64,000 bases of DNA from Chiloscyllium plagiosum (lineage: Eukaryota). A model generated the notes under the pieces. That model did no database searches. It worked only from the letters and a program-made list of their open reading frames with translations, and had not been told where the DNA came from. The first letter of the stretch is position 1. Every line of letters begins with the position of its first letter. Below, piece after piece: positions 5,605 through 62,654 of this stretch. The stretch covers positions 1,943,246 through 2,007,245 of the forward strand of contig NC_057748.1 of the NCBI RefSeq assembly GCF_004010195.1, given 5' to 3'. The translations under genes were made by a program, and so were the position numbers.

Positions 5605-5785
5605 AACAGAACTGCAGATACTGGAAATCTGAAACAAAGTACTGGAGAAACTCAGCAGATCTGGCAACATCTGTGGCAGCACTTCAGTTCTGAGGAAGGG
5701 TCACTGCACCCGAAATGTTAACTCTGACTTCTGTCCACAGATGCTGCCATACCTGCTGAGTTTCTCCAGCACTTTGTGCTTTTGT
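5605..5785. mobile_element. Short fold-back Penelope-derived element with hammerhead core
   Basis: Inverted arms 5637-5676 / 5735-5774 enclose CTGAGGA-AGGGT..ACCC-GAAATGTT. Confidence 0.7.
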
Positions 5786-6764
5786 AGCAAGATCGTTTGT
5801 CAGGCTTTAAATTAATCCTAAAACTGATATAACTTTCAGGACGACACATGACACTTGCTGGGCTATGGGGAGTAGAAAATGTTAGAATCCCACTGGACTG
5901 ATACACCCTACAGGCTCAAGTGAAGCTTATTTGCTGGAAGTGCAAATATCCAAAGCAGACAGTGAAGAAGATAAATAAATCAAACACGATCATCTGCTCT
6001 TAGGATCACAATTTGCAAAATTAGCGAGTTAATGCAAGCAAGGGCAAGGGAGAGAGAGACAGCAGTGGTCAGGTGAAGCAGAGGCACAGCGAAACTTTGG
6101 AGGCCAAGGCAGATGAGAGAGAGACAGAGAGAGAGGGTGAGTCTGAGGGTTATGACTATGAGCTAAGTCTGGGGCTTCTCAGATTACTTGATACTAAAAC
6201 ATCCTGAATCTCAATCAGCAAACTGCTACAGGTACAGAATGAGTTAAGGAGTAAGGTAGGGGTATGGGACAACTTACAAAGCTACACCTGCTTATCCCCA
6301 CAGGCAATAAAATCAAATTTGCTTTCTCCCTCAAAAATGAGATTAGTCACCACAATCACGAGTTATAGCAGCATGAGAGAAAACCACTCAGGCAAGCAGG
6401 GATAGTCTAGCAGCTCACAGTGTTCAAACTGCTGTACTTCAGAGTCTGGGTGTTTGGAAGCAGAGAAGGATGCTGTAGTTAAGCAAGAGGAGGGGTTTGC
6501 TGGGGTGGGAACAATTTATTGTATTCCTCAGTGAAGGTGATGCCTTTTAATCGATCCATAGCAAAGAGAACCAAATAACCCTGCAAAAGGAAGGTGCAGG
6601 AATTGGAATTGGAATTAAAACATATGAGGATTGGAGGATGAGAAGTGGTCAGGAGCTGAAAATAGCAAGCTGTCACTAACAGCATCTCTATGCTCTGTTC
6701 TCCAGACCACTCATTAGAAATTAATGGGGGTATAAAACATAATAATCTGAAAGAAATGGTGAAT

Positions 6765-6992
6765 CTCCCTCTATACTGTTCCCCTCAAAAACTACCAGGA
6801 CAGGGACAGCATGGGATTACATACAGAGTAAAGTTCCCTCTCCTCTTTTAAATTCTCAGTGAGTTTCTCTCTACATTGCCCCCCTCAAATTCTCCAGGAC
6901 AGTGACAGCATGGGGTTAGATACAGAGTAAAGCCCCCTCTACACTGTCCCGCTCAAACACTTCCAGGACAGGGACAGCACGGATTAGATAGT
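6765..6992. repeat. Degenerate ~70-bp tandem repeat, 3 copies
   Basis: Repeated CTCTACACTGTCCCC.TCAAA...CCAGGACAGGGACAGCA.GG..TTAGATACAGAGTAAAG. Confidence 0.75.
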
Positions 6993-7439
6993 CAAGCTCT
7001 GTGCACCATTCCCACACTGACCATGATTCCTTGATGCTCCGTTGGGTAACTCAGTCCCAAATGTTGGAGTGCCAACCGTTAATTGTTCAAGGGCTCTAAT
7101 GTGCTGCCATTTTGGAATGTTGCTCATTGGATTTAATGATGTACCTGAAACACTGCATCCTGCAAGTTTTTGAATCAGGTGCCAGAAAGCAGGATTCAAC
7201 CGGGCAGCTAATTTACTCAGCCAGTACACACAGGAGGCTGAATGGCCACCTTCTGTGCTGTAAACTTTCTCTGGTTCTACGAAATTCCCTTGGAGCCCAG
7301 ACAGGGGTCAGTTTTCTCCACTGCACTTTTCTGAATGGAATTTGAATGCATTGGCCTAGAATTTGGTCCAAAGCCTTGAAAGTGAATGGACAAGAGAAGA
7401 TGATCAACACTCTACTATCTCGATGTGACCCCAGGGGAA

Positions 7440-9135: not shown

Positions 9136-9348
9136 AAACCAAAAGAACTGAGAATGCAGCAAATCAGAAACAAAAACAAGAATTGCTGGAAAAGCTCGGC
9201 AGGTCTGGCATCATCTGTGGTGAGAAATCAGAGTTAATGTTTTGGGTTGAGTTCGAAGGATGGATCACTGGACCCAAAACCCTAACTCTGATTTCTCTCC
9301 ACAGATGTTGTCAGACCTGCTGAGCTTTTCCAGCAATTTTTGTTTTTG
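9136..9348. mobile_element. Short fold-back Penelope-derived element, decayed hammerhead
   Basis: Inverted arms TTGCTGGAAAAGCTC.GCAGGTCTG / CAGACCTGCTGAGCTTTTCCAGCAA. Confidence 0.7.
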
Positions 9349-10832: not shown

Positions 10833-11236
10833 CCTGAAGAGGGAGCCACTCCTCGAGTTCAGCAAGTAGATCATCACACTTTTATATTTTAATACTTATT
10901 TTGTTTTTATTAATTCATGAATTGTGGGCTTGATCAATACTGATTGCTAACACATAATTCCTCTTAAAGTGGTGGTGAGCTGCCATGTTGAACCATTGTA
11001 GTCCATATAGTGCTGGTTCATCACAGCACTGTCAGGGAGTTACAGTCTTGACGTGAAAAATCAAGGAACAGTGATACATTTTCAAATCAGGATGGTAAGT
11101 GGCTTGGAGGCGAACTTACAGATGGTGGTGTTCCTATGTATCTGCCATCCTTGTCTTTCTAGACAGCAGTGGTTGTGGATTTGGAAGTTGTTGTCTAAGG
11201 AGCCTTTATTAATTTCTGCAATGCATTTTATTGATG

Positions 11237-12151
11237 GTGTGGTTCTGTTCGCCGAGCTGGGAATTTGTGTTGCAGACGTTTCGTTCCCTGTCTAGGTGAC
11301 ATCCTCAGTGCTTGGGAGCCTCCTGTGAAGCGCTTCTGTGATGTTTCCTCTGGCATTTATAGCGGTTTGTACCTGCCGCTTCCGGTTGTCAGTTCCAGCT
11401 GTCCGTTGCAGTGGCTGGTATATTGGGTCCAGGTCGATGTGGCTTATTGATTGAATCTGTGGATGAGTGCCATGCCTCTAGGAATTCCCTGGTGTTCTCT
11501 GTTTGGCTTGTCCTATAAAAGTAGTGTTGTCCCAGTCGAATTCACGTTGCTTTCGTAGTTTAGGACTTGGTCTGTGTGTGTGGCTTTCCTGCACAAAACA
11601 CTACATAGGACAAACAGGAAGACAGCTAACGATCTGCATCCATGAACAACAACTTGCCATGAAACGACACGACCAGCTATCCTTAATAGCCACACACGCA
11701 GATGACAAGCAACATGATTTCGACTGGGACAACACTACTATTTTAGGACAAGCCAAACAGAGAACAGCCAGGGAATTCCTAGAGGCATGGCACTCATCCA
11801 CAGATTCAATCAAGACAGCTAACGATCCGCATCCATGAACACCAACTCACCACGAAACGACACGACCAGCTATCCTTAATAGCCACATGCAGATGACAAG
11901 CAAAATGAATTCGACTGGGACCACACTACTATTTTAGGACAAGCCAAACAGAGAACAGCCAGGGAATTCCTAGAGGCATGGCACTCATCCACAGATTCAA
12001 TCAATAAGCACATCGACCTGGACCCAATATACCAACCACTGCAGGATGTCACCTAGACAGGGAACGAAACGTCTGCAAAACAAATTCCCAGCTCGGTGAA
12101 CAGAACCACAACAACGAGCACCCGAGCTACAAATCTTCTCTCAAACTTTGA
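11237..12151 (+). mobile_element. Penelope-like element 3' portion (GIY-YIG remnant) with an inverted 5' segment and an internal tandem duplication
   Basis: HYIGQTGRQL...AREFLEAWHS; 11238-11305 is inverted relative to 12043-12110; flanking repeat GCATTTTATTGATG/GCATCTTATTGATG. Confidence 0.85.
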
Positions 12152-15928: not shown

Positions 15929-16771
15929 GATTCCAGTATTGTCACTGTACTGGGACAGCTGGGCTTAGGGCTCTGCAATTGCTGGAGCACAAGTCTTCAT
16001 TGCTATTGCTGCAATGTTGTCAAGGCCTGTAGCCTTTACAGTATCCAGTGCCTTCAGCTGTTTCTTGATAACACATTGTAAAGACCGGAGTTTTTTATTT
16101 TTCTGTATTACAAAATAAGGCTAGTTCAAAATCACTGCACTTTTTTAAAGCATGTTACCTGACACTCAATGTAAATACTGTTCACACAGCTGTTGATTCA
16201 ACAAGTGGGGGAAGCCTGATTACAGAGGAGCTGGAACCAGGGAGCGGTGTTTGAAGGGAGATTTGACTGGCCACAGGTAGCTGATTGATACTTGGTCACT
16301 AGTCCACAGACCAAGGACAAAGGCTTTTTGCCTGCCAACAACCATGTGATTGGCTCCCAGGTAGCCAAACAGCTTTGGGATAGGAATGTTTGGGGCAGAA
16401 GCTATCAGACCTTTGGGAAGGAAGGTGCTGTTTCTGCTCTGCAGTAAAAGAAAAGCATCTCAAATCTGAAAATAGCCAGTTTGTTTCCCCTTTCCAGTTG
16501 CTGTAAACTGTGATTTTTGTTTAATAAGTCAGAGACCTTTATAAGTCACCCTGTGCCTCCTGCAAAAACAGGCTAATAAGGAAGATAAAGAATCGGCATT
16601 CTGATCAGCAAACTCTGACAGGACTCACTGAACTGCTGCCCTCAGATCCCACCTCCCTCAATCTTTAACACCCATGTTGTTTGAGTGTCTTTCTGTATGT
16701 GAGCTAGAGGCAGAATTTTATAAGTGGGCTAGAGTTTTAACTAAAGTAGTTATATATTGACAGCACATAAC

Positions 16772-17478
16772 CAGGACAGAACCCCACTGGTCCTCACCTA
16801 CCACCCCACCAATCTCCATGTACAGCGCATCATCCGCCGTCATTTCCGCCACCTCCAAACGGACCCCACCACCAAGGATATATTTCCCTCCCCTCCCCTA
16901 TCAGCATTCCGTAAAGACCACTCCCTCCGTGACTCCCTCGTCAGATCCACACCCCCCACCAACCCAACCTCCACTCCCGGCACCCTCCCCTGCAACCGCA
17001 GGAGGTACAAGACTTGCGCCCACACCTCCCCCCTCACCTCCCTCCAAGGCCCCAAAGGAAACTTCCATATCCGCCACAGATTCACCTGCACCTCCACACA
17101 CATCATCTATTGCATCCTCTGCACCCGATGTGGCCTCCTCTATATTGGGGAGACAGGCCGCCTACTTGCGGAGCGATTCAGAGAGCACCTCTGGGCCACC
17201 CGGACGAACCAACCCAACCAACCTGTAGCACAGCATTTCAACTCCCCCTCCCACTCCACCGAGGATATGCAGGTCATTGGACTCACCCACCGCCAAACCA
17301 CAACAACGCGACGGTCGGAGGAGGAGCGTCTCATCTTCCGACTGGGAACCCTCCAACCACAGGGGATGAAGCTGGACAAACTTTCCTCATTCCTGAAGAA
17401 GGGCTTATGCCCGAAATGTCGATTTTCCTGTTCCCTGGATGCTGCCTGACCTGCTGCGCTTTTCCAGCGACACATTTT
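16772..17478 (+). mobile_element. Penelope-like element (Neptune-type), 5'-truncated, GIY-YIG endonuclease ORF
   Basis: Cys-rich linker then IIYCILC...LYIGETGR...RFREH; TSD CAGCACATAAC at 16761 and 17479. Confidence 0.9.
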
Positions 17479-17566
17479 CAGCACATAACTATCAACTTGC
17501 AGTTAACAACAATTACTATTTAGACAAATAAGTAGATGCTAAGTACAGAAACCTGGTTAATACCAG

Positions 17567-27012: not shown

Positions 27013-28502
27013 AAGCTACAAAGTGCAAACCCTGGGCCAGGGGGTTTGGGGGGATTGGATCATTCCCAAACACAATTCAACAACAGGGAAGATGCACATC
27101 CAGGAAATGCAAGACGGCGATCCTTGTGCACAAATAAAAATGTTAATTGCAGTTTGTTTCCATCTTAAATTTAAAGTATAATGTCACCTAATCTTTAAAA
27201 TATGACTGTGCACATTAATTAATCCATTCTTAAAACTGTGATGTTCATGTGCGAGGTAATCTTTAATATTAACTTTCTACATAATCGAATTATTTGATTA
27301 ACTTATTTTTAAAATAAAGTTTTCACTGTTTTTGTATTAATTTTATTAAATAATGCTTTAATATATTTTTACGATATTAATGTTCATGTTGTTGATGCAA
27401 ATGCATAAACATTATTAACTATCAAATCTAGCAAGTAAGTTAAATGCCTATTAAATAATCATTCAAATATATTTTAAAAGTACCAACTGCATGAAATCGT
27501 CTCACAAACAACACAGGAAATATTAGTGCTCACACTATTCTTGCAAACATAGTGAAAATATTAATTTGGAAAACAACTAATCTTGCAGACACACTAAAAT
27601 ACAACTCTCCATTAAATAATAGTTTAAATGTATTTCAAAATTATTATGAAATCTGAATCTTGTAAATAAAATTAAAAGCATATAATATGATCATGTCTAA
27701 TCTGGTAACTGCATTACTTTGAATACAAAGTCATAGACTAAGTATTGAAACAAAACTCTTAAATAATCCAAACATATTTTTATAATAACATTCAAAAATC
27801 ACATATATCAAAGAGCTTCACGTTACACTCTAGATTGTTACAGATTTCATATATTTAAAATAAAATTATGCATTACAAGTAATTTTGTAACCATATTTAA
27901 GGTATAATTAATGAATTATGTAGTATAATGCTAAAAGGATAGTTTGTTTTAACTCTAACCATAAGATATATTACTCGTGTAATATTAATATATTACACGA
28001 GTGATGGGCAGAGAGAGAAAAATTGTCACAATTTGTCATTACATAAGCCCTCAACTGATCTTTCTTTTACTTCCTCTCATAAACCTTGGGGCATGATCCC
28101 CAAATATTCCATTGCGTGAGCCCTAACTGACATTCTTACTCTGTCAGATTGACTGTTGAATAGCTGCCTCTGCACATTAGTCGTTTTGTAGGTTCAATCC
28201 CTGATCTGCTAAAAATTGACCAGCGTGGCTCAGTTATTGAGCCCTGGGTTCAACATGAAGATGATTTGTCAGCATCATTTCTGGAAGCACGTGTGTATTG
28301 TGAACGTGCTGGCGATGGCAGATTCAGGTTTTCAATCTAATGCCTGCTAAATTTAGACAGCTGCCAATTTTCAGTCAACTGGGGCTAAATAATGGAACAT
28401 TAAACCAAAGCCCTTTGAGGCCTTGCAGCTGAGAGATGGCATGTCCATTATTGCCGAGTTTCCTCAATCCCAAAACAGTTGGTGAGACATGAGACTTAAA
28501 CA

Positions 28503-28638
28503 TCCATTCTGATGAAGGACTTATGCCTGAAACGTCGATTCTTCTGCTCCTCGGATGCTGCCTGACCTGCTGTGCTTTTCCAGCACCACACTCTCGACTC
28601 TGACTCTGCAGGATCTGCGGTCCTCACTTCCTCCTATA
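28503..28638 (+). mobile_element. Solo Penelope terminal repeat beginning with a hammerhead core
   Basis: CTGATGA AGG..CCT GAAACGTC at 28509-28536; TSD AGACTTAAACA at 28492 and 28639. Confidence 0.8.
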
Positions 28639-28744
28639 AGACTTAAACAGTAAGCTTTTCCTTGTAAATGGATTTTTCACAGAAGGCCGCATTACGAAGC
28701 ATTATTGTCCTAACCCTGTGTCCAATGATCTTTCTTTTTTTTAT

Positions 28745-29192: not shown

Positions 29193-29574
29193 TGGGGTGG
29201 GGGAGTGCTTTTATACTGATTGAAGAACTGATAGAAAAACATTGTGCCAAATTATACTCTGCAGAACCAATTTAGCACTTTGCAGCCCCTCAAAGGGGGC
29301 ACTGCGACAAAAGTCAAGTTCTGAAAGGAAATGTATAAAGTTAAATTAAAATTTGGTTGTAAGTGGGGGATGGGGAGGAGGTGGTGCGGGAGTGATGTTA
29401 CTCCACTCCTGCAGTGCCTACCAGTTGCAGAAGACTCTGAGGTTACCAGTGGAGACCGTGTGCTCCTTGTCCAAGGACACCTGGGCACAGAGTGGCTTTG
29501 GAAGAGAGGTAGGCAATCCCCACCATAGCTCACACCTTGTTAATGGTCTAGGAATAGGCAGACCCTCTGACTTG

Positions 29575-30734
29575 GTAAAAACAATGACTGCAGATGCTGG
29601 AAACCAGATTCTGGATTAGTGGTGCTGGAAGAGCACAGCAGTTCAGGCAGCATCCAAGGAGCTTCGAAATCGACATTTCGGGCAAAAGCCCTTCATCAGG
29701 AATAAAGGCAGTGAGCCTGGAGTGTGGAGAGATAAGCTAGAGGAGGGTGGGGGTAGGGAGAAAGTAGCATAGAGTACAATGGGTGAGTGGGGGAGGGGAT
29801 GAAGGTGATAGGTCAGGGAGGAGAGGGTGGAGTGGATAGGTGGAAAAGGAGATAGGCAGGACAAGTCATGGGGACAGTGCTGAGCTGGAAGTTTAGAACC
29901 GGGGTGAGGTGGGGGAAGGGGAAATGAGGAAACTGTTGAAGTCCACATTGATGCCCTGGGGTTGAAGTGTTCCGAGGCGGAAGATGAGGTGTTCTTCCTC
30001 CAGGCNNNNNNNNNNNNNNNNNNNNNNNNNNNNNNNNNNNNNNNNNNNNNNNNNNNNNNNNNNNNNNNNNNNNNNNNNNNNNNNNNNNNNNNNNNNNNNN
30101 NNNNNNNNNNNNNNNNNNNNNNNNNNNNNNNNNNNNNNNNNNNNNNNNNNNNNNNNNNNNNNNNNNNNNNNNNNNNNNNNNNNNNNNNNNNNNNNNNNNN
30201 NNNNNNNNNNNNNNNNNNNNNNNNNNNNNNNNNNNNNNNNNNNNNNNNNNNNNNNNNNNNNNNNNNNNNNNNNNNNNNNNNNNNNNNNNNNNNNNNNNNN
30301 NNNNNNNNNNNNNNNNNNNNNNNNNNNNNNNNNNNNNNNNNNNNNNNNNNNNNNNNNNNNNNNNNNNNNNNNNNNNNNNNNNNNNNNNNNNNNNNNNNNN
30401 NNNNNNNNNNNNNNNNNNNNNNNNNNNNNNNNNNNNNNNNNNNNNNNNNNNNNNNNNNNNNNNNNNNNNNNNNNNNNNNNNNNNNNNNNNNNAGCAGATC
30501 CGGCGGAGGCGGAGGAATTGGGAATACGGGATGGCGTTTTTGCAAGAGGTAGGGTGGGAAGAGATGTAATCCAGGTAGCTGTGGGAGTCGGTGGGTTTGT
30601 AAAAAATGTCAGTGTCAAGTCGGTTGTCATTAATGGAGATGGAGAGGTCCAGGAAGGGGAGGGAGGTATCAGAGATGTTCCAGGTAAATTTAAGGTCAGG
30701 GTGGAATGTGTTGGTGAAGTTGATGAATTGGTCA
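29575..30734 (-). mobile_element. Penelope-like element (Neptune-type), spans a gap
   Basis: EEEHLIFRLGTLQPQGIN C-terminus and RT-thumb sequence; TSD ACCCTCTGACTTG at 29562 and 30735. Confidence 0.88.
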
Positions 30735-31304
30735 ACCCTCTGACTTGCCCATCCCCTCCCCTCTGTGCACAGGATTTACGGAGGCCTAAGAGGGTGGGGT
30801 TGAAGTGCAAACAAAACATCAGAAGCAGCTTCCCCCCCCCCCCCCCTCCACCTCCTGCCCCCACCAACAAAATGGAACCTGGAGCCTCCCCCACCCAGTG
30901 TAAATGTGAAACATAGACCCCTCAAGGCCACAGAAAGCTCACGCAGCCTGGGAGTCCGTAAACATTCTGTTGCCTAACAGTTTTAGGGGATTGCTGTGTT
31001 CACTGCCCTCTGCATCACATCAGTGGTGGTATTCAGGAGATTTCCTACATGGGAAGTCCTCGGGACATGTGGCACCATCAAACAGCAAAGCTGAACACTA
31101 AGGTGCATTAGGACAACGGATAAGGCCAAGGGAGGGAGTGTGCACAGTAGCAGCCCAGACAGACACCCCCCCTGTGGGGCACATGGAAGAAATCTCCATA
31201 AAACTGCTCACACAGCCGGGCCTGGGTCTGTGAGGTTAAAGTGAAGTTTTGGCCGAGTGCAGGTAAAACTCATCTGGGATTGATGACAATAAGATCGTCT
31301 CTTA

Positions 31305-32550: not shown

Positions 32551-32943
32551 AATAAAATGTGAGCATTGCTGACAGATTTGTCTCCCATCCTTAATTGTCC
32601 TCAAGACTGGCTGGGACATTTTGGAGGGCAGTTAAGAGCTGACCACATTGCTGCAGGGTCTGGAGTCACACATAATCCGGACCAGGTGAAGACGACAGGT
32701 TTCCTTCCTTAAAGGGACATTAGTGAACCAAATGTGGTTTTACAACATCGCCATCAGTGAAACATTAAAACCCAGGTCCATTAATTCAATTTAAATTCCA
32801 CCAGCTGCAATGGTGGGATTTGAAACGAGTCCCCAGAGGTTTAACCTGGGCCTCTGGATTATTAAACACAGTGACAGTCCCATTACACAATCATGCCCCT
32901 CTAAAATTGAAAGATGTTTGTTGGAAAACCTTATCAAAGGATA

Positions 32944-33160
32944 GCGATTTTTGAGAAGATTTGTAGCTCAGGTTGATACTAAGTATGGAAGTTAGCTTGC
33001 AGAGGTGGAAGGTTTGTTTTCAGATATTTTGTCCTCATACTAAGTAACACCATCAGTATACACCAGCGCTTCACCAGAGACTCACTGATGATGTTACTTA
33101 AAACGGTGACGAAAAGTCTAAAAACAACCTTCAAGCTCAGCGAGCTAACATACATAATGG
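32944..33160. mobile_element. Fold-back Poseidon-type terminal-repeat pair with divergent hammerhead cores
   Basis: CTGATGATGTTAC...GTGACGAAAAGTC at 33085-33118 mirrored upstream; TSD TATCAAAGGATA at 32932 and 33161. Confidence 0.75.
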
Positions 33161-33960
33161 TATCAAAGGATATAGAGGAATGGTGGGTAAATGGGGATGG
33201 GACAGATGAGCCAATGTTTAATTGAATAGCGGAACAGATTTAAGAGACTGAGTAGTTTCTTGTTGTTTCTCAGCTTGACGTCCTTCACAGCCACATATCC
33301 TGGTAACACCGTCCCTTTGGCTATGGAGGGTGAGCACTTAGGTTGCGGTAATTAGTATGAACAGTGACAGAGAAAAAGCACCTGAGGAGCAGGGGTGAAC
33401 ACTGTAGTTAATTATCAGAAAATCATTCAGCCAGTACAGCTAATATAACCATCAATGGTCTTCAAATTGCCCTAAAGGGATGGAGATATTTTCATCTTTC
33501 AGTGTCAGACAGAACCATCAGGATAAACTGAAATAGATGTGAACTGACTGGTTTGATATTGAACTCTGATTGAAGTCACCTCTGAAGCCGGGGCACGGAC
33601 ATGGATATTATCCTTTAACCATCTGCAAAATACACCTTTTTAAAGGGGAGTAGAACTGCCTGTATTGTCACATACACTTGAGTGAGTGCAGTGAAAATGT
33701 TTGCAAAGTCGCCTCTCATCGCCACCATGGGTACAGGGTACCTGGGTACAGGTACTTCCCCATAGGTACAGATTTCAGCAGCCACTGAGCTGGGGCAGGG
33801 ATTGCACTCTTTGCCGCTTCATCTAGTTTCATATTTGAAGGGTCTGGATTGGAGCGGTCTGAGCATTATTGTCTTATTAGTGGATGAATCCTCAAATCAG
33901 AAAAGGAGAGCTCCCAGCACCAGCAGCCGATGAGCAGTGACACATGATGAATCTAAACTT

Positions 33961-34151
33961 GAAGATAGTGAGGACTGCAGATACTGGAAGTCAGAGTCGA
34001 TAAAACGTGGAGCTGGAAAGGCGCAGTAGGTCAGGCAACATCGGAGCAGCAGGTGCATCGACCCAAGGATCCTGACCCGAAATGTCGACTTTCCTGCTCC
34101 TCCGATGCTGCCTGACCTGCTGTGCCTTTCCAGCACCACATTTTATCGACT
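33961..34151. mobile_element. Fold-back Neptune-type terminal-repeat pair
   Basis: Inverted arms GTCGATAAAA..GCTGGAAAGGC / GCCTTTCCAGC..TTTTATCGAC; TSD ATGAAT(C/T)TAAACTT at 33947 and 34152. Confidence 0.8.
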
Positions 34152-35560: not shown

Positions 35561-35801
35561 TTTACTTGATTAGAAATCTGTCTATATAGCCACCCAGACT
35601 GTACAGCCCCTCTGAGAGAAGAAATTCCTCCTCATCTCTGTTTTCAATGGGTGACCCCTTATTCTGAGATGATACCCTCTGGTCTTAAACTCTCAACAAT
35701 GGAAATCCACCTTCGCCCATCTGCCCTGTCAAAGCCCCCTTAAGAATCGTGGATGTTTCAATAAAGTCCCCTCTCATTCTTGATTGATTGATTTATTGTC
35801 A

Positions 35802-36070
35802 TGATGTGGAGGAGCCATTGTTGGACTGGGGTGGACAAAGTTAACAATCACACAACACCAGGTTATAGTCCAACAGGTTTATTTGGAGGCGCTAGCTTTT
35901 GGAGCGCTGCTCCTTCATCAGGTGGTTGTGCTGATGAAGGCGCGGCGGTCAGAAAGCTAGTGATGATGTCGCCTAGCCAGGGGATGAAACGTTTGCAACA
36001 AAAACTTCCAGCTCGGCGAACAGAACCACAGCAACGAGCACCCGAGCTACAAATCTTCGCACAAACTTTC
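35802..36070. mobile_element. Composite of two Penelope-type terminal-repeat families with three hammerhead cores
   Basis: Cores at 35891-35921 (-), 35931-35960 (+) and 35961-35996 (+). Confidence 0.7.
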
Positions 36071-37488
36071 AACATTAACTAGTTCAGCATTATTTGAAGT
36101 TAGAGAGACCATTCTTCAGTCTAATAGCAGCAGTGAAGAAGCTGTTCCTGAACCTGTTGGTGCATGTGTTCAAGCTTCTATGTCTTTTACCAGATTGCAG
36201 AGGTTGTCGGAGAGCGTTTCCAAGGTTGACAGGGTCTTTGATGATGTTGGCAGCCTTTCTGCAGCAATGGCTGTGTTATTGGAGTCCATGGTTGGGAGGT
36301 TGGCTTCCATGATGGTGTGGGCTGTTCTAAGCTCCGGTGGGTACAGGCCCAACCTACTCAACCTCTCCTCATCAGATAGTCCCTCCATACCTCAGATCAG
36401 CCTCATTAACCTTTTCTAGACTGTTTACTGTTTCAAAATAAAAATGGCTCTTCTTCAGAACTAAAACATGTCCCACTGAAACATCATCCAGTCATTATTG
36501 TGTTGTTTTGGTGAGCTTGCTGTGTGCAAATTGGTTGCTGAATTTTCCCAGATGAACATAGTGCCTTCATTTCAAAATTACTTTCATGATGAAAGGCACT
36601 ACAGAAATGCAAGATCTTGCTATAATTGTTTTCTAAACGTGTCTTCAGTGTCTTCTGGACAATGTTAAGTTTTCACAGTTAACAATTAATAAGAAGATCC
36701 AGTCAAGGAAACAATTTTTTCCCCAAGATAAGATTTCCATAAACAATCCCCGTGAACATTTGGCTATTTCTCTGCTTTAGTCGATTTCATATTTCCATTT
36801 GAAACCACCGCACTGATGACATCATTGGAAGAATTGTCTGGAAGCATTTCGAGAAGCTGTGAGAGTTACAATAAAAATCTGCAGAACTGACCATTAATCT
36901 GCACTGCTTCACCAATTATGTCATTCCAATGGTGTGAATCTTAATTTATGTGTCTTGCTTTATCACCTTGATGATTCCTGAATGCCAGTGCACCCCAGGA
37001 AAGGAATAGAGCTGTAATTCAAGAGTGAAATTGCCAAGGTTTCACATCCATCACTTCCCTGATTTTAATTCTTGGCACTACTGGAGCTGTGGGTGGATAT
37101 ATTAGCCTTAGACAGGGTGCAACACAGATATACCAGAGTCATACTGACATTTAGAGGGCTAATGTATGAGGACAGTTTGCACAGTGTTGTGTTCTGTGGA
37201 GTATAGAAAATTAAGAAGTGATCTAATCAAACTGTTTGCAATAATTAAAAGATGTGATAGGGCTGACAGAGAGGAACTATTCACTGTGGTTGGGAGGAGT
37301 CCTCAACCAGGGGACTGAGCCTCCTCATTCAGGGTGATGCCAGGATGTGTGTTTTCACAGAAAACATTCTGGAATTCCGAGCCCAGAAGTCACTGAGTGT
37401 GAGGGGTCAATTGGAAATTTCGAAACGTTGATCGGTAGATTTTTTTTTGCTGCACGTATGTATTTAGAATTCGTGTACCAAGGTGGAG

Positions 37489-37691
37489 GAAGTCACACGA
37501 TGCCAGGTTATAATCCAACAGGTTTATTTGAAATCACAAGCTTTCAGAGTGCTGACCCTTCGTCAGGTGAAGTGTGATGAAGGAGCAGCACTCTGAAAGC
37601 TTGTGATTTCAAATAAACCTGTTGGACTATAACCTGGTGTCATGTAACTTCTGACTTTGTCCACTCCAGCCCAACATCAGCACCTCCACAT
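37489..37691. mobile_element. Fold-back element with two divergent hammerhead cores (GAAAGCT type)
   Basis: ~75-bp inverted arms; TSD CAAGGTGGAG at 37479 and 37692. Confidence 0.8.
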
Positions 37692-39324
37692 CAAGGTGGA
37701 GAGATAAAGTTGAAGTATGTGACCGGCCATGTTTAACAGAAGGATGGAACAGAGTCAATGACTGTGCGATCATCTCCCTGCTCCTGGCTCAGGGGGCACT
37801 GCCTACCATGTTCTTACCATGAACTATGCTTCCTGTTTGATTGCCATCTTGTACATGGTCTCAGGGAGTCCATCTACAGCGAGACTCCAACTTCTAAGGA
37901 AAGTCTGGTGCCTGTTGTCCTCACCTGACAATGGGCCATGGGGAACGTATAGAGGCCAAAGGCTGAAATTTTCCATTTTGATACCAAAGTGTGGCTTTTA
38001 GCATCTGAATTGGGGTCATATCCACCAACGCCCAGAGTGAGTAGGTTCATTCCATTCACGTGTTGCTCAGCTCATTAGCTATGCAAGTGGGATGTTGCTC
38101 AGTTTTTGACAAATCATAGGTTGTGAGTGACAGGAGGGTCTCCCCATTGTGGGAAGGTCCTGGGTCAAAGGTTTTGTCACCGAGGTTAAAGACGAGCTGG
38201 ATGGCTCTGCAGGCCAGGAATTACAAAGGAGTCCATGGTGCCCACCAAAATACCAACCCATGAAGTCCAGGCTAGCTCCCGGGTTCACTGACACTGCTCT
38301 CTGGATGCAGTCACTGAGAGGGCGTCCATCCTGTTCCTTGGAGATGACACCAAGAGGTCTCACATCACACCCGTCCAGGCCGCAAGCAGATGGCAGAGTG
38401 GGTCAGTGCTGCCAATCCACATAAAAGTGGAGCAAGCTTTGTTTTATTCACCTGCGGGAATGGGCGTCGCTGACTGGGCCAGTATTTACTGCCCGTCCCT
38501 AGTTTCCTGATGAGAAGGCAGGGGTGAGCTACTTTCTTAAACCAATGCAGTCCACGTACTGTAGGTAGACCCAAAATGCCCTTAGGGAGGGTATTTCCTC
38601 CCTAAGGTGCCTCAAGAAGATGAATGGCCTCCTGAACCCTGCAAGGGGATGTGGCATCTTCTTCATACTCATAGGCATCACTCAGTCCCAACTCTGCCAC
38701 TGTGCAGGTATCTCAGAAACAGCCAAGGCCTGCAGTCCTCAGTTTCACACACATGTCGAACATTCGGGGCTCACAGCCATTTCATTCCACTCAAAGGGCT
38801 AAGCCTCACTGTCAACTGTACTTCCTACACCCTCAGAGGGGATGCCTCACCATCCCACTCAGTTATGTAAGCTCCCAGAGTTCTCCAGCATCAACATCAC
38901 CCACAATCCTCCTCTTTCTCTCATCTCAGGAGAAACCAATGCTCAGTGATGTTGAGAAGGCCAAGTCTGGGAGGGGGTGTGATGGCTGCTTTGGGACTAG
39001 GAGAGTCTTATATCCTTTGAGGACATCAAGCTGGGAGAGGGACTGAAGACTGGTGCAGGAATTGGTTAGCAATCTGTCCTTCTTGGTTGAGCACAAAGGC
39101 AAACATGTTGTTCTGCATCCAACTCTTCGAAATCGTCACTGATTCACAGAGGTGAAGAACGGTCTGTGAAACCAAAGGCACATGCAGGCCTCAGCCTGAG
39201 CTCCTGGGTGCCAGAACCCACTCAAGGGAGGAGGCCTGTCAGAGCTTGCAGGCGCGAGGTATTCACTTTGGCCAGAATGGAGACTGTCACATCAGCCGTG
39301 GGGGTTAGGGAGGGAATTGAACTC

Positions 39325-39705: not shown

Positions 39706-40894
39706 TATGGTAGATACTTGGATATAGATTGGATTTGGGCCACAATTTGAGGAGCATGTCACTGACACGTGTCTGCTCCAGGATGAAACACCAAAGATCT
39801 CTGACCCTCAGGGGTTTGCCAGAGACCAGCTCAGGCCCATTGCAGAAGTGTGGCTCCATCCTCAGCTGTCAGCAATGTAGTGAAGCTGCGGAGACAAGTG
39901 CAGCAACATCAGACATTCAGTAACCTGGACTGAAAGATGGAGTTCTCCCTCCTGTGGTGGCTCCAATGTGCTGCTTCCATGGAGAGGGGCAGTGGCTTCC
40001 TTGGAGACCCAAGTCCAGGAGAACAGTCAGTGGTCACCAGACCGGCCTACACTCTCTCACTGAGCCTCATTGACAAGATGGCACAAGCTGAGGCATCTCT
40101 ATCTCACTCCAGGTGCCCCTACTTCTGAGAAAGACAAGTTGCCGTTGGCGAGGAAGAGCCTTTTCCCAGGTCACTCCAGAAGACCCCTGTCCTTCTGGTT
40201 TCCGCTGCCATTGTCTCCAGCAGCTGAGGCCGAGAATGCACCTGAACCTGTACTGGAGACCGTCAGCTGGATGGACCACCCCTTCCCTCCCAACAGGAGA
40301 TGCAGTCCCAAGGGTGAACAGTCAGCAGACTTCCTCCACTGCAGCCACTGATATTGAATTGAATTGAATGAGCTTTATTGTCAGAGTTAGCTTTATTATC
40401 AGGCCTGCACCTATACACAACAGGAGGAAAAGGGGGGAGAAACACTCCTGAGGACATATTGGTGACAGGAGTGTTCAATTATTGTTCAATTTGCAAATAC
40501 ACATCCCATTGACCTGTCCTAATGTCTGTTGTAGTCTTCTTATCAAAGTAGGACAGGAGGAGATCCTGCAAAGTGAAAGTTTTGGAGGATTCTCAACCAA
40601 TCAAGGCATGCAAGGCATTTCAATCTCACACTGTGAAACCTCTCCCATAAGCAGCAGAGTGGGTGACCAGAGATGGCTTCACTGTCAGGGAGACACACAT
40701 TGAGATGTTGCGATCATACTCAAGGCACAACAGCTGAATCTCGGGGAGACTGATGGCTAAGGATGCCATCGACAGACTCTAGTAAACCCCTGCATTATAT
40801 ATGAAGACTTGGCATCACTATTTTCTACAGCCATGCCTCACCCAGACTCGAGGCCAAAGAGCAATGTTGACTGGTACACACTTGGTTAATGCAA

Positions 40895-41094
40895 AGTTAA
40901 AAATCACTCAACACCAGGTTACAGTCCAACAGGTGTATTTGGAATCACTTGCTTTCAGAGCGCAGCTTCGAACCACCTGGTGAAGGAGCAATGCTCCAAA
41001 AGCTAGTGCTTCCAAATAAACCTGTTGGACAATAACCTGGTGTTGTGTGATTTTTAATTTTGTACACCTCATTCCAACACCAGCTCCTCCAAAT
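40895..41094. mobile_element. Fold-back element, same family as 37489-37691
   Basis: Inverted arms ACACCAGGTTA.AGTCCAACAGGT / ACCTGTTGGAC.ATAACCTGGTGT; TSD CTTGGTTAATGCAA at 40881 and 41095. Confidence 0.8.
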
Positions 41095-41719
41095 CTTGGT
41101 TAATGCAATGAGTGTCTGATGCATCCTGTATCTCAATTGGGAAGGGTTTACTTGAGAAGGGAATTCCAGTGGGAGGGATAAATAATGAGATATTAATTCA
41201 TGTGTATAGGCATCCCGTCACTTGATGGTGAGGAAGTCACCTGGCCCTCCAATGAGGGAGACTTAACCTCAGTGGACACACATCAAGAACCACCATGTGT
41301 TGAGGCTTTACCTGTCCCCAGTGTTGCCAAGGTGGCTCTGGCCTCGTTACCTTGAAATTCTCCAAGTAGACAGGCCATTGAACCTTGTGGAAACCTCGTG
41401 CAGAAAAACACCTTTGAGCACAAGTCCATCAGGCAACGGTCAGCACTTACCATCCTCCAGGCCCTGCTGGGAAAGGAGAACATCGTTCTGACCGGATGGT
41501 TCCCTGAGCAGACTATCACAGTCATCTTACAGAGCTTTCCAGCAAGGACCAAGATGTGGCTTGGGTGGCAGCAAGAAAGGCCTTTCCCATTAGATCCTTC
41601 TTACCCTCTGGGGGACTCACCACCACCCCATGTTGCCCTTGAGGACGGCTGTGTTGGGGAAGACACTGTTGTGCATCTCCTCGCACAATGGGCTTTTGCA
41701 AGGAAGATCTGGAGAGAGA

Positions 41720-47031: not shown

Positions 47032-47222
47032 GTAGGCACCAGAGCTGAATGAATTTGAGAAAAGGTTTGGGTACAGAAGCTTGTATTTGCATAGGGTTTC
47101 TGGCTTGCTACCTTTTCTCTTTGCCACTAAATTACATTTGGGATACTCAAACGTGTTTTACAAGTTCTCGATAGTAAGACCACTTTTTTTTTTTGGAATC
47201 CCCATGTCATATCTTTTGGGGA

Positions 47223-47402
47223 GAAAGTGAGGAATGCAGATGCTGGAGATCAAAGTTGAAACTTTATTGCTGGAACAGCACAGCAGGTCAGGCAGCATCC
47301 AGGGAACAGGAGATTCGACGTTTCGGGCACAGGCCCTTCTTCAGGAATGAGAACTTTCAACTTTGATCTCCAGCATCTGCAGACCTCACTTTCTCCTCGA
47401 AG
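47223..47402 (-). mobile_element. Fold-back Neptune-type terminal repeat with intact-looking hammerhead, RPL3 intron 4
   Basis: Minus strand CCTGAAGAAGGGCCTGTGCCCGAAACGTCG; inverted arms TGCAGATGCTGGAGATCAAAGTTGAAA / TTTCAACTTTGATCTCCAGCATCTGCA; perfect TSD ATATCTTTTGGGGA at 47209 and 47403. Confidence 0.82.
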
Positions 47403-47743
47403 ATATCTTTTGGGGACCCAAGCCAAGACCATTGGATTCATGTCAGGTTTACTGAATGGTGCGGAGTTCTGCTTCAATCCTCTAATTCTGGATGGCTTGC
47501 ATATAGAACATTACAGCGCAGTTCAGGTCCATCGGCCCTTGATGGTTCCACAGGTCAGCAACAATCTGAAGTCCATCTAACCTACATTATTCCATTCTCA
47601 TCCAAATGCCTATCCAATGATCATTTAAATGCCCTTAAAATTGGCACGTCTACTGCTGTTGCAGGCAGTGCGTTCCACACCCCTTCTGAGCAAAGACACT
47701 ACCTGACATCTGTCCTATACCTATCACCCCTCAATTTAAAGCT

Positions 47744-48830
47744 AACACATTCCACCCTGACCTTAAATTTACCTGGACCATCTCTGACACCTCCCTCCAT
47801 CCCAGACCTCTCCATCTCCAGTAATGATGACCAACTTGATACTGACGCTTTTTACAAACCCACTGACTCCCACAGCTACCTGGATCACACCTCTTCCCAC
47901 CCCACCTCCTGCAAAAATGCCATTCTGTATTCCCAATGCCTCTGCTGTATCTGCTCCCAGGAAGACCAGTTCCACCACAGAACACACCAGATGGCCTCCT
48001 TCTTTAGAGACTACAATTTCCCTTCCCATGTGGTTAAAGATGCCCTCCAACGCATCTCGTCTACATCCTGCCCCTCCAACCGTAACAAGGACAGAACGCC
48101 CCTGGTGCTCACCTTCCACCCAAATTCACAAACCAAATCATCCGCCGACATTTCTGCCACCTCCAAACGGACCCCACCACCAGGGATATATTTCCCTCCC
48201 CACCCCTTTCCNNNNNNNNNNNNNNNNNNNNNNNNNNNNNNNNNNNNNNNNNNNNNNNNNNNNNNNNNNNNNNNNNNNNNNNNNNNNNNNNNNNNNNNNN
48301 NNNNNNNNNNNNNNNNNNNNNNNNNNNNNNNNNNNNNNNNNNNNNNNNNNNNNNNNNNNNNNNNNNNNNNNNNNNNNNNNNNNNNNNNNNNNNNNNNNNN
48401 NNNNNNNNNNNNNNNNNNNNNNNNNNNNNNNNNNNNNNNNNNNNNNNNNNNNNNNNNNNNNNNNNNNNNNNNNNNNNNNNNNNNNNNNNNNNNNNNNNNN
48501 NNNNNNNNNNNNNNNNNNNNNNNNNNNNNNNNNNNNNNNNNNNNNNNNNNNNNNNNNNNNNNNNNNNNNNNNNNNNNNNNNNNNNNNNNNNNNNNNNNNN
48601 NNNNNNNNNNNNNNNNNNNNNNNNNNNNNNNNNNNNNNNNNNNNNNNNNNNNNNNNNNNNNNNNNNNNNNNNNNNNNNNNNNNNNNNTTCACCTGTTGTA
48701 CTCTTTACTTTCTCCCCACCCCCACCCTTCAGACTCTCTGCCTGTATTCCTGATGAAGGGTTTTTGCCCGAATCGTCGATTTTACTGTTCCTCGGATGCT
48801 GCCTGAACTGCTGTGCTCTACAGTCATTAC
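47744..48830 (+). mobile_element. Penelope-like element nested in a CR1 remnant, RPL3 intron 4
   Basis: Homologous to 29575-30734 and 16772-17478 (NKDRTPLVLTFHP). Confidence 0.85.
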
Positions 48831-55920: not shown

Positions 55921-57060
55921 TTAGGGTGTAGGTTTGCTCGCTGAGCTGTAGGTTTGGTATCCAGACGTTTCATTACCTGGCAAGGTAACATCATCAGTGG
56001 CGACCTCCAAGTGAAGCGAAGCTGTTGTCTCCTGCTTTACTATTTATATGTTTGTCCTGGATGGGGGTTCCTGGGGTTTGTAGTGATGTCATTTTCCTGT
56101 TCGTTTTTGTGGGGGGTTGATAGATGGTATCTCGACCTATGTGTTTGTTTATGGCATTGTGCTTGGAGTGCCAGGCCTCTAGGAATTCTCTGGCATGTCG
56201 TTGCTTCGCCTGTCCCAGGATAGATATGTTGTCCCAGTCGAAATGGTGTTTTTTTTTCATCTGTGTGTAGGGCTACGAGGGAGAGAGGGTCGTGTCTTTT
56301 TTGTGGCTAGTTGGTGTTCATGTATCCTGGTGGCTAACTTACTTCCTGTTTGTCCTACGTAGTGTTTGTGGCAGTCCTTGCACGGAATTTGAAGATGACG
56401 TTGGTTTTGTCCATGGGTTGTACTGGGTCTTTTTAAGTTTGTTAGTTTTTTGTTTGAGAGTGTTGGTGGGTTTGTGTGCTACTAGGATTCCGAGGGCTCT
56501 TAGTAGTCTGGCTGTCATTTCTGAAACTTCTTTGATGTATGGTAAGGTGGTTAGGGTTTCTGGCTGTGTTACGTCTGCTTGTCGTGGTTTGTTCGAGGAA
56601 TCTGCGGACTGTATTTTTTTGAGTATCCGTTCTTCTTGAATACATTGTATAGGTGGTTCTCTGTTTTTCCATAGTTTGCCTGTGCTGCAGTGTGGGGTGG
56701 CTCGTTGGAATAGTGTTCTGATACGGCTTCGTTTTGTGTGTGTTGGGATGGTTGCTGGTGTAGTTAAGTATTTTGGTCAGTGTTTGTCAGTTTTCCTGTG
56801 TACGCAGGTTTGTAGTTCTCCGTTGTCCTTTCTTTCGACTGTGACGTCCAGGAATGTGAGTTTATTGTTGGTTTCTTTCTCCTCGGTGAACTTTATGCCT
56901 GTGAGGGTGTTGTTGATGATGTTAAGTGTCTCTTCTATCTTGTTTCGTTTTTGTGATGATAAGGGTGTCATCTACGTAGCGGACCCAAAAACAAAAAAAC
57001 TAACAAACCTACACCATAAACGTCAACCTGAGCTACAGACCTTCACAAACCTTGCAAAAA
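55921..57060 (-). mobile_element. Penelope-like element (Poseidon-type) inserted in CR1
   Basis: IKFTEEKETNNKLTFLDV (RT) and FDWDN..ILGQAKQRHAREFLEAWHS; TSD ATCCTTGTAAAT at 55909 and 57061. Confidence 0.88.
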
Positions 57061-58842: not shown

Positions 58843-61800
58843 GTCATAGAGATGTACAGCACAGAAACAGATCCTTCAGTCCAACTCATCCATGTCGAAC
58901 AGGTATCCCCACCTAACCTAGTCCCACCTGCCAGCACCTGGCCCGTATCCCTCCAAACCCTTCCTATTCATATACCCATCCAAATACCTCTTAAATGTTG
59001 CAATTCTACTAGCCTCCACCACTTCATCTGGCCGCTCATTCCATACACGTACCACCCTCTGCATGAAACCGTTGCCCCTTAGGTCCCTTTTAAATCTTTC
59101 CCCTCTCACCCTAAACCTATGCCCTCTAGTTCTGGACTTGCACTTATCTAAATTAAACTCCATCTGCCACTCCTCAACCCACTGGCCTATCTGATCAAGA
59201 TCCCGTTGTAATCTGAGGTAACCTTCTTCGCTGTCCACTACACCTCCAATCCTGGTGTCATCTGCAAACTTACTAACTGTACCTGTAATGCTCACATCCA
59301 AATCATTTATGTAAATGACAAAAAGTAGTGGACCCAGCACTGATCCTTGTGGCACTCTACTGGTCATAGGCCTCCAGTCTGGAAAAACAACCCTCCACCA
59401 CCACCCTCTGTCTTCTACCTTTGAGCCAGTTCTGTATCTAAATGGCTAGTTCTCCCTGTATTCCGTGAGATCTAACCTTGCTAATCTGTCTCCCATGGGG
59501 AGCCTTGTCGAATGCCTTACTGAAGTCCATATAGATCATTCTACTGCTCTGCCCTCATCAATCCTCTTTGTTACTTCTTCAAAAAACTCAATCAAGTTTG
59601 TGAGACATGATTTTCCATGCACAAAGCCATGCTGACTATCCTTAATCAGTCCTTGCCTTTCCAAATACATGTACATCCTGTCCCTCAGGGTTCCCTCTAA
59701 AATCTTGCCCACCACTGATATCAGGCTCACTGGTCAATAGTTTCCTGGCTTTTCCTGACCACCTTTCTTAAATAATGGCACCACGTTAGCCAACCTCCAG
59801 TCTTCTGGAACCTCACCTGTGACTATCGATGATACAAATATCTCTGGGCCCAGCAATCACTTCTCTAGCTTCCCACAGAGTTCTAGGGTACACCTGATCA
59901 GGTCTTGGGGAGCACTTCCTCCTCTGTAATATGGACATTTTTCAAGATGTCACCATCTATTTCCCCACATTCTTTATCTTCCATGTTGTTCTCCACAGTA
60001 AACATTGATGCAAAATACTCATTTAATATCTCCACCCAACTCTGCGGCTCCACACAAAGGCTGCCTTGCTGATCTTTGAGGGGAGATTCGTGAGTGTGGT
60101 GCTGGAAAAGCACAGCGGGTCAGGCAGCATCTGAGGAGCAGGAGAGTCTACATTTTGGGCAAAAGCGTTTCATCAGGGATGAGGCTGTGAGCCAAGGGGG
60201 TGGTGAGATAAATGGGAGGGCAGCGGGGCTGGGGGGGTGAGTGTAGCTGACAGTGCGATAAGTAGATGGAGGTGGGGGTGTTAGGTGTTCGGTTGGAGAG
60301 GAGGATGGAGCGGATAGGTGGGAAGGAAGATGGACAGGTAATGAGGGCAGTGCCGAGTTAGAATGTTGGATCTGGGGTAAGGTAGAGGGAGGGAAATGAG
60401 GAAACTGGTGAAATCCACATTGATGCCATATGGTTGGAGGGTCCTCAGGCAGAAGATGAGGTGTTCTTCCTCCAGGCGTCGGGTGGTTAGGGAGTAGCGA
60501 TGGAGAAGGTCCCAGACCTGCATGTTCTTGGCAGAGTGGGAGGCGGAGTTGAAGTGTTCGGCTACGGGGCGATGGTGTTGTTTAGTGTTGGTGATGTCCT
60601 GGAGATGTTCTCTGAAGCGCTCTGCATGTAGTTGTCCTGTCTCCCCAGTGTAGAGGAGACTGCATCAGGAGCACCAGATACAGTAAATGACGTGTGGAAA
60701 TGCAGGTAAAACTCTGATGGATGTGGAAAGCTCCTTTGGGGCCTTAGATGGAGGTGAGGGGGGAGGTATGGGCACAGGTTTCGAGGGGAAGGTGCCGGGA
60801 GGGGAGGATGGGTTGGTGTGGGGCGTGGACATGACAAGGTAGTCGCGGAGGGAAAGGTCTTTACAGAAAGTGGATAGGGGTGGCGAGGGAAATATATCCC
60901 TAGTGGTAAGGTCCATTTGTAGGTGGTGGAAATGGCAGAGGATGATGCAATGTATACTGAGGTTGGGGATGGAAGGTGAGGACCAGGGGTTTTCTGTCCT
61001 TGTTGCAGTTGGAGGAGTGGGGTTTGAGGGCAGAGGTGTGGGAAGTGGATGAGCTGTGCTAGATGGCATCATTGACCATGTGGGAGGGGAAATTGTGGTC
61101 TTTAAAGAAGGAGGCCATCTGGTGTGTTCTGTGGTGGAACTGGTCCTCCTGGGAGCAGATACGGTGGAGGCAGAGGAATTGGGAATAAGGGATAGCATTT
61201 TTACAGGAGGCAGGGTGGGAGGAGGTGTAGTCCAGGTAGCTGTGGAAGATATTCGTGTTGAATCAGTCACCATTGATGGAGATGGAGAGGTCCAGGAAGG
61301 GGAGGAAGGTGTCAAAGATGATCCAGATGAATTTAAGGTTTGGGTGGAATGTGTTGGTGAAGTTGATAAACTGTTCAACCAACCTCCGCGTGGGAGTATG
61401 AGGTGGCGCTGATGCAGTGGGCCTTATTCTCTCCCTAATTACTCTTTTAGTCTTTAATGTATTTGTAAAAACCCTTTGGATTCTCCTTAACCCTAATTGT
61501 CAAAGTTATCTCATGTCCCCCTTTTCCCTCCTGATTTCCCTCTTAAGTATGCTCCTACTGCCTTTAAACTCTTCTATGGATTCACTCAATCTATCCTGTC
61601 TATTCCTGACAAATGCTTCCTCCTTTTTCTTAACAAAACTCTCAATTTCTCTAGTCATCCAGCATTCCCTATACCTACCAGCCTTTCCTTTCACCCTAAC
61701 AGGAACATACTGTCGCTGGACTGTCATTATCTCATTTCTGAAGGCTTCCCATTTTCCAGCCGTCCCTTTACCTGCAAACATCTGCTCCCTATCAGCTTTT

Positions 61801-62003
61801 GAAAGTTCTTGCCTAATATGGTCAAAATTTGTCTTCCTCCAATTTAGAATTTCAACTTTTAGATCCGGTCAATCCTATTCCATCACTATTTTAAATCTAA
61901 TAGAATTATGGTCGCTGGCCCCAAAATGCTCCCCCACTGACACCTCAGTCACCTGCCCTGCCTTAGTTCCCAAGAGTAGGTCAAGTTTTGCACCTTCTCT
62001 AGT
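58843..62003 (-). mobile_element. CR1 (HER1-like) LINE ORF2 remnant interrupted by a Penelope element
   Basis: [50 protein letters not shown]. Confidence 0.88.
60088..61380 (-). mobile_element. Penelope-like element (Neptune-type), degenerate, nested in CR1
   Basis: RRLEEEHLIFCLRTLQPYGINVDF; homologous to the other copies. Confidence 0.85.
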
Positions 62004-62654
62004 AAGTCCAACACATACTGACTCAGACCTTTTATGACTTAATTGCATATTGGCTATTTCAGTAACTTTAAAAGAAACATTTTTTTTTGGATGCGGTGTT
62101 TCTACAGGTTTGACAAATGTTGTATATATTTTTTGAGAAAGTAGTGGGTCCTAAACCACTGGTTGACAGTTAAGTAACAGCTGTGTAGATAGAAAGGCCA
62201 TTAAGAGTCAATCATGCTGAGCCTGGAGCCCTGGACTGAGTCAAAATGTTAGTGAGCTTTCCCTAAAGGGATACCAGTGAACCATTTTCGATTATTGAGA
62301 CCTGAAATAAGAACAGAAAATGCTGCGTGTAATCAGCGGGCCACACTGAATCTGTGGAGAGAAAAACAGAGTTAATGCTTCAGACTGAAGACTTTCATCA
62401 GAATTGGTGCTTGTGATGGACTTACTTCCACGACAACAAATTTATATTCTCTCATTTGTAAAGGAAAATTCAAAAGCTGAAATAGCTTTTGAACTCTCGT
62501 TCATAACCAGATTCTTAAAAGAAATCCTCTGGATCAGTCTCGTCACACAGCACATCACCAGTACGTGTATACAGTTGAATTTGTGCTGTGTTGTCTCTGT
62601 GCTTTTTGTTGTTTCTTTTTGAATGAGTTCTTGTTGTACCTTGTTGTTTTCCAG

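Follow-up and report, generated by a model that had tools for sequence, protein, structure and literature searches.

The window analysed here, a stretch of 64,000 nucleotides from Chiloscyllium plagiosum contig NC_057748.1, carries insertions derived from Penelope-like elements (PLEs) with minimal type I hammerhead ribozyme cores, which we group into types A, B and C and an A-related type D. With a strict core pattern (CTGAnGA, a stem of at least 3 pairs, and GAAA) we found 10 cores in the window, against a mean of 0.93 and a maximum of 3 across 40 Markov shuffles of it. Nine of the 10 are sites listed in an earlier note on this DNA, with core base C3 at 5690, 17393, 28509, 33085 and 35931 on the plus strand and at 29699, 37566, 47344 and 55997 on the minus strand; the tenth, at 36458, lies outside that list and looks like a chance match. 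At 11308 (minus strand) the core boxes are intact and stem II is bulged, and seven listed sites (35921-, 35961, 37575, 40980, 48750, 60176- and 62401-) carry core mutations. The note's claim of more than a dozen such cores, several of them decayed, is therefore borne out: all 17 sites are family-related (9 strict, 1 bulged, 7 mutated), although the positions it gave on the minus strand lie 16-36 nt below C3. The Rfam hammerhead models that it proposed as a check gave zero matches in the window at E<=5. The window does not stand out in core density: its 10 strict cores in 61.5 kb compare with 88 raw matches over 775 kb sampled from the genome.

The families share the core boxes, an extra base before stem II, G10.1-C11.1 and a palindromic stem III, which reads ACGT in A1-A3 and B1 and AGCT in C, and which is CpG-decayed in the D, B2 and B3 copies, of which there are few. 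The first three positions of stem I pair in 87% of cases within a family and in 36% across families (10 majority forms), by an anchored count that replaced a pair count from a MAFFT alignment found to be out of register. At the level of sequence, this stem covariation supports a selected hammerhead in the parent elements.

To describe the insertions we used 107 stretches of 10 kb picked by position (seven of them beside the window) plus the window, 1.10 Mb of non-N sequence from a genome of 3.56 Gb, and mapped each arm to natural long copies, taking C3 of the hammerhead core as position 0. After removal of artefacts the sample held 334 arms and 75 fold-backs, which extrapolates to ~1.1 million arms and ~240,000 fold-backs genome-wide; a "tail-only" class of 42 type B arms was dropped, as it reflected long interspersed nuclear element (LINE) flank inside one reference. 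Exact genome-wide counts of single young cores were at least 37,264 for A1, at least 2,399 for C and at least 1,350 for D.

The outer ends of the arms are bimodal in all three families, with modes ~35-40 nt apart (~+88 and +124 in A, ~+85 and +121 in C, ~+71 and +112 in B), the longer arm thus bearing a tail. All 75 two-arm inverted elements (46 A, 24 C, 5 B) are head-to-head and none is tail-to-tail, and 40 of the 46 type A and 22 of the 24 type C examples pair one tail arm with one short arm. Their median size is ~190-205 nt. The central junctions are distinct in 45/46 type A and 24/24 type C fold-backs, and those that recur, at selected loci, fall on microhomologies of 2-3 nt. The short arm goes beyond the 5' reach of the tail arm by more than 5 nt in 23/40 (A) and 7/22 (C) cases, and the two arms of a pair tend to agree at subfamily sites (A, 215/244 concordant vs 134.6 expected; C, 187/249 vs 138.3). 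The same head-to-head layout is repeated at 3-6 kb around pieces of an open reading frame (ORF) for reverse transcriptase (RT) and endonuclease (L168, L169, L172, L173). Among type A singles, 87 are short and 38 long. A miniature inverted-repeat transposable element (MITE) or other DNA transposon, which would have symmetric inverted termini, a set length and a short target site duplication (TSD) of constant size, does not fit the asymmetric ends, the varied insertion sizes (103 nt to several kb) and the TSDs of ~10-16 nt. All six TSD pairs listed earlier for the window are present (12-16 nt, with up to 2 mismatches permitted), and five of the six insertions they bound are fold-backs, in keeping with the description of most of them as such; the sixth, 28503-28638, is a single unit, and 33961-34151 lacks the CTGAnGA box. 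The accompanying description as two inverted terminal repeats does not fit: a fold-back consists of two whole arms head-to-head with a one-sided tail and no body between them.

At their 5' ends the arms meet a sharp wall. We measured it on arms at least 85% identical to a reference, counting as at risk those still extending at the point in question: 46/84 type A and 23/30 type C arms at risk end in -9 to 0, and over the following ten bases only 4/38 and 1/7, respectively, end. The per-base end rate in -9 to 0 is 5-8 times that of +1 to +29 and more than 10 times that of -49 to -20. The type A mode is -4; an exact A1 search, of which the first 100 rows were inspected by eye, gave 44 copies ending at 0 to -3, 18 at -4, 5 at -5 and 2 at -6 to -8, with 31 running on. 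Position -4 is the A of TCATTC in type A and of TCAGTT in type D, sequences that resemble an initiator.

An extra G accompanies this end. A1 copies ending at -4 gave 4,987 exact genome-wide matches, and in the first 100 of these, by eye, the base after the end was G in 69, A in 18 and T in 13 (G expected in 27%, p 2e-18); the parent base at that position (-5) is C. For control ends at -3 (5,351 matches) the next base in the first 100 was G in 14, C in 46 and T in 40. In L047, L240, L252, L257 and L261 neither arm supplies a template for the G, and L065 has it on both arms; type D ends weakly repeat the type A excess (G in 7/12 such rows). In single units the G at -5 is usually also the last base of the TSD, often with AT next in the target, as expected if a copied cap joins in microhomology. 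An extra G at the 5' ends of full-length L1 insertions is reported in a passage of PMC11702581. Poly(A) single-cell RNA reads showed no pile-up of starts or ends, 94% of them running on elsewhere, in a library unsuited to start-site mapping. Drosophila Penelope is described, in a passage of PMC2377424, as having an internal promoter; a downstream promoter element like the one in that element matched poorly here, and we do not claim it.

Coding parents were found for these units. Type A forms the end of a PLE ORF that encodes RT, a cysteine linker and a GIY-YIG endonuclease; both domains scored below the Pfam gathering threshold (RT, E 4.6e-6 in L204; GIY-YIG in the window copy at 16748..17482, E 1.7e-4, just below). 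In five partial tandems (L209, L217, L224, L225, L232) the type A pseudo-long terminal repeat (pLTR) and tail continue into the ORF, whose first ATG lies ~35 nt beyond the tail, and 39 further type A copies also have a pLTR partial tandem running into the ORF. Among these 39 copies (L327-L365), which carry the 5' side of the ORF, the end falls within the pLTR in 31, at -4 (with G) in 1 and further out in 7; 32/39 thus lie at or inside -4. Four copies of this set have their ends between -15 and -21, which may mark a second start site.

For type C, walking upstream led through a CA-rich untranslated region (UTR) to an ORF end, and the parent protein matches the type A endonuclease region at 28% identity (E 2e-19), with RT and endonuclease upstream of the unit in L169, L172 and L173; the protein had no Pfam match, and BLASTP against the type A RT frame gave none. 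The statement that type C has no coding partner is thus not contradicted within the window, and the partner lies elsewhere in the genome. Type B ORF remnants are present in the window (E 3e-5 and 5e-7). About 20 of the 100 listed D cores have common upstream sequence, by eye, so type D too has a longer parent. Open frames of 500-745 aa in long copies are mostly masked N, and hence no intact ORF was seen. The cysteine linker is visible in the A and C parents, with none seen in the broken B remnant; a Zn-finger-like linker between RT and endonuclease is named as a Neptune feature in part of PMC8557442, and by this motif types A and C may belong to the Neptune clade and type B to the Penelope/Poseidon clade. 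The insertions thus have the hallmarks of endonuclease-positive PLEs: a parent with RT and C-terminal GIY-YIG, an inverted 5'-truncated copy, a one-sided tail and a TSD.

We consider it likely that the short insertions are minimal landings of autonomous PLEs, in which one or both cut target ends were primed on the first pLTR of a probably capped transcript and copied to its 5' end. The endonuclease would make a staggered cut, giving rise to the TSD, and each target 3' end would prime reverse transcription from one or the other of two internal start sites. Each copy would stop at, or short of, the capped start (the A of TCATTC in A, of TCAGTT in D), and the extra G would be the copied cap. Joining of the two copies by end joining or microhomology would yield a fold-back with a one-sided tail, and extension of one target end only would yield a single unit. 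The end positions, the unique junctions, the G excess and the parents are observations, whereas the cut, the double priming, the cap and the dead-end status of the products are what we infer. Every transcript would carry the first pLTR and then the ORF start, and a copy of the pLTR alone would measure 90-130 nt. Minimal products would dominate because the first pLTR is always competent, if priming needs RNA past the start sites as in Anolis: for the Anolis Poseidon element in vitro, the relevant passages (Frangieh et al. 2024, PMC11167929) describe two adjacent internal RT start sites that bound the tail, cutting and extension of both strands, and uncleaved RNA as a substrate, with hammerhead cleavage unneeded. 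Stubs end at the tail and so would lack the downstream protein-binding region, which by analogy with the Anolis element would make them dead ends.

The hammerhead would be carried along uncleaved. Copy ends at the predicted cleavage site (+28) gave 181 matches and no peak, compared with the 4,987 at -4 (~450 vs 6,300 after flank filters; the search patterns differ, and the ratio holds as an order of magnitude only), and because such ends are rare, cleavage does not appear to make the stubs, and we rejected cleavage-derived templates. An apparent type C end peak at +29 was an indel-subfamily artefact, and the first 100 of the 181 matches ending at +28, from the pattern of one subtype, showed no U6 3' end. 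Stubs retain the sequence upstream of the cleavage site, which together with the rarity of +28 ends is in line with the in vitro use of uncleaved RNA as described in part of PMC11167929. Most fold-back RNAs are predicted to fold into long hairpins that bury the core, so that the hammerhead of a fold-back transcript would be locked; Rfam microRNA matches on these hairpins were far under gathering scores. A bolder version of the model, which we offer as a tentative possibility, is that Penelope insertion is built-in twin priming, with the hammerhead four bases from the cap and the million stubs being strong-stop copies of the first pLTR; the ribozyme, which cuts only as a dimer or with the protein, might then act as a switch for self-decapping: by taking off the first 32 nt together with the cap it would hold down the element's expression, and it would not serve to make circles.

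Several observations weigh against the minimal-landing model. Concordance of the arms could have been inflated by later conversion, and the control at -3 is itself skewed by microhomology. In several fold-backs the other arm, too, offers a template for the G at -5; because the G doubles as a TSD base or other-arm base, only ~6 cases are cleanly untemplated. Type C ends are spread over -9 to -3, with no clear G excess by eye. The wall coincides with the 5' edge of hammerhead stem I. Copies carrying the 5' side of the ORF have ends that gather toward this region and yet are not piled at -4, 7/8 of those that reach -4 pass it, and the ends of the five other partial tandems lie between about -48 and -257; since copies extend past -4, read-through templates exist. 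The need for downstream RNA is extrapolated from a Poseidon-clade element. Finally, a TCAT haplotype in the stem II loop occurs in 5 short and 0 long copies.

The earlier note had offered two explanations, an integration product and a ribozyme-SINE (short interspersed nuclear element) or retrozyme family. The former is supported, and an independent family is disfavored by the unique junctions, the 3-6 kb layout, the shared haplotypes and the few tandems. We regard it as unlikely that the short units are self-propagating non-autonomous families (ribozyme-SINEs or non-LTR retrozymes) whose transcripts, from single units or fold-backs, are copied anew by Penelope proteins. In favor of this, each single unit would keep an internal promoter lying at -4, short type A singles outnumber long ones, the TCAT haplotype was seen in short copies only, and animal retrozymes are reported as PLE derivatives in part of a preprint (bioRxiv 10.64898/2026.07.22.740005). 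Some junctions do recur (-1/+9 in at least five loci, 0/+28 in many of the rows listed); however, the recurrent ones sit on microhomologies, and junctions are unique in 69/70 sampled fold-backs. The proposal that shared or unique junctions would settle the matter was carried out with this result, and taken alone the test is too strong, because unique junctions would equally be expected if the same machinery were copying a short non-autonomous RNA. Further evidence against such families is that, of the five commonest haplotypes, four are shared by short and long copies, that each outer end of a fold-back is fixed at an RT start site, a result that copying of a unit from one end would not produce, and that every family examined has a longer parent. 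A non-LTR retrozyme in particular requires a tandem of at least 2 complete hammerhead units, and tandem arrays are nearly absent: of the 253 insertions sampled, 2 were called as tandem, each of them type C. Elsewhere in the genome, at G000:C16:42817610-42818020, we noted a tandem array of ~47-nt units derived from a type A pLTR, each beginning near the predicted cleavage site.

Somewhat less probable again is a version that keeps the same parents and double priming but attributes the wall to a stop caused by structure or processing where stem I ends, whether an RT stop, exonuclease trimming or an endonuclease cut at ATT. The A and D wall does coincide with the last stem I pair, full copies do pass -4, and the Anolis enzyme prefers ATT (in a passage of PMC11167929), which is what type A reads at -4 to -2. 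Such a stop leaves both the G excess at -5 and the untemplated G on both arms unexplained, and in 3'-to-5' copying the part of stem I encountered first would be its 3' strand (+28 to +31), which shows no enrichment of ends. Very improbable, in our view, is self-priming or snap-back, in which the end of one copy folds back and templates the second arm: although it was proposed for rotifer Penelope palindromes (in part of PMC3846280) and would explain the arm concordance and the small palindromes at some junctions (L065), it fails because the short arm often extends past the tail arm, and further because the short arm cannot template the tail and an untemplated G is found on either arm.

The insertions of the window are collected in Table 1. 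In the composite at 35798-36069, the 31-nt type C arm passes via short shared sequence into the type B unit, and the whole is a chimera of two Penelope families, made by template switch or later deletion. Outside these families, 10649-10832 holds a perfect 64-nt inverted repeat with a 56-nt spacer, hammerhead-free and unrelated to the three families, and long simple tandem repeats adjoin masked stretches at 2689-3200, 4600-5200 and 54893-55086. As for genes, a coding exon starting MEAAAAYGAG at 26782-26888 (minus strand; no Pfam match on 33 aa) resembles the first exon of synaptogyrin-1. Exons at 44864, 44981, 49826 and 53159 (plus strand), with what we take to be ribosomal protein L3-like motifs, flank the stub at 47209 and the long copy at 47744, and an intronic small nucleolar RNA, U83B, lies at 49541-49625, above the Rfam gathering score.

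Table 1. PLE-derived insertions in the window (positions are window coordinates; cores are given by C3).
Feature	Position	Strand	Arms, cores and contents	TSD
Type D (A-related) older fold-back	5605..5785		arms 5634-5676 / 5735-5777; core 5690 (+)	none found
Type D fold-back, absent from the earlier list	9171..9348		core decayed	none found
Type B complex insertion	11234..12150		long arm on minus, core 11308, short end; interior of inverted/tandem ORF-end pieces; tail-bearing unit on plus, 12032-12150	
Type A ORF end with GIY-YIG joined to pLTR unit	16748..17482	+	core 17393, short end (+89)	
Single type A unit (-5 to ~+128)	28489..28649	+	unit 28503-28638	14 nt, copies at 28489 and 28636
Long type A copy	29573..30772	-	RT piece, masked stretch, endonuclease end, 3' UTR, pLTR core 29699 and tail	
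Type B fold-back	32932..33172		tail arm minus, short arm plus; core 33085	12 nt
Type A fold-back	33947..34165		arms begin at ~+25 and +17, hence without CTGAnGA box	14 nt, 1 mismatch
Composite	35798..36069		type C tail arm (minus, core 35921); 31-nt type C arm (core 35931); type B unit 35961-36069	none found
Type C fold-back	37477..37701		cores 37566 (-) and 37575 (decayed)	10 exact nt (12 with 1 mismatch)
Type C fold-back	40881..41108		short arm +10 to +85, tail arm -6 to +121; decayed core 40980	14 nt, exact
Type A fold-back	47209..47416		whole unit minus (core 47344); +80 to +125 piece plus	14 nt
Long decayed type A copy	47744..48817	+	RT piece, masked stretch, UTR, mutated core 48750	
Type B copy	55924..57052	-	RT-thumb and GIY-YIG remnants, core 55997; inverted tail piece 57004-57052 (+)	
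Long decayed type A copy	60098..61420	-	RT/endonuclease remnants, mutated core 60176	
Strongly decayed D-like unit	62330..62405	-	core remnant 62401	

The element class, the layout and the minimal hammerheads are already published (PMC3846280, PMC8557442, PMC4209133). In the passages concerned, endonuclease-positive PLE units such as Pen2a_Av (PMC3846280; PMC8557442) share with ours the head-to-head inverted copy, the one-sided tail of ~35-40 nt, the long TSD, the 5' truncation and the partial tandems; here, in contrast, the commonest product is a 90-230 nt ORF-free minimum, and its sharp 5' wall and extra G have no counterpart in those passages. The minimal PLE hammerheads, as presented in part of PMC4209133, likewise have a type I core, an extra base before stem II, G10.1-C11.1, a palindromic stem III and a short stem I, and occur mostly as single motifs with some opposite-strand pairs 100-700 bp apart. 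The cleavage-and-circle route outlined there does not fit the ends found here, at -4 rather than +28, and the same part contains no analysis of sharks or of insertion ends.

Among characterized mechanisms, the closest relatives are the Anolis Poseidon reaction and L1 twin priming. The former, in the passages at hand, is alike in the pair of start sites bounding the tail, the extension of both strands and the dispensability of cleavage; inverted repeats and the 5' stop are not derived there, and types A and C differ in having the cysteine linker and in looking Neptune-like. L1 twin priming, in the relevant part of PMC11702581, is alike in that both target ends are extended on RNA, the products are joined by end joining, the TSD is kept and complete 5' ends carry an extra G. 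In L1, however, the second primer anneals by microhomology beside the end of the first copy and the arms barely overlap, whereas in the present insertions the two starts are fixed and a single stretch is copied into both arms. Non-LTR retrozymes (portions of PMC7229834 and bioRxiv 10.64898/2026.07.22.740005) also have a type I hammerhead, a non-coding body, a long TSD and PLE pLTR ancestry, but they are tandem repeats that give circular RNA, whereas the units here are single or head-to-head, with ends off the cleavage site. A search of the literature outside subscription journals, repeat databases and the supplements of the retrozyme preprint turned up no description of cap-bounded, twin-primed PLE stubs.

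The origin of the inverted repeats and one-sided tail of PLEs, and the role of their hammerhead, are stated to be open in passages of PMC8557442 and PMC11167929. On the reading of the short insertions as minimal landings, the ~1 million arms of this genome would be a base-level record that predicts the transcription start, the two priming sites and the joining step of these elements, and in annotation the hairpins would be filed as retroelement stubs, not as MITEs, microRNA precursors or a new SINE.

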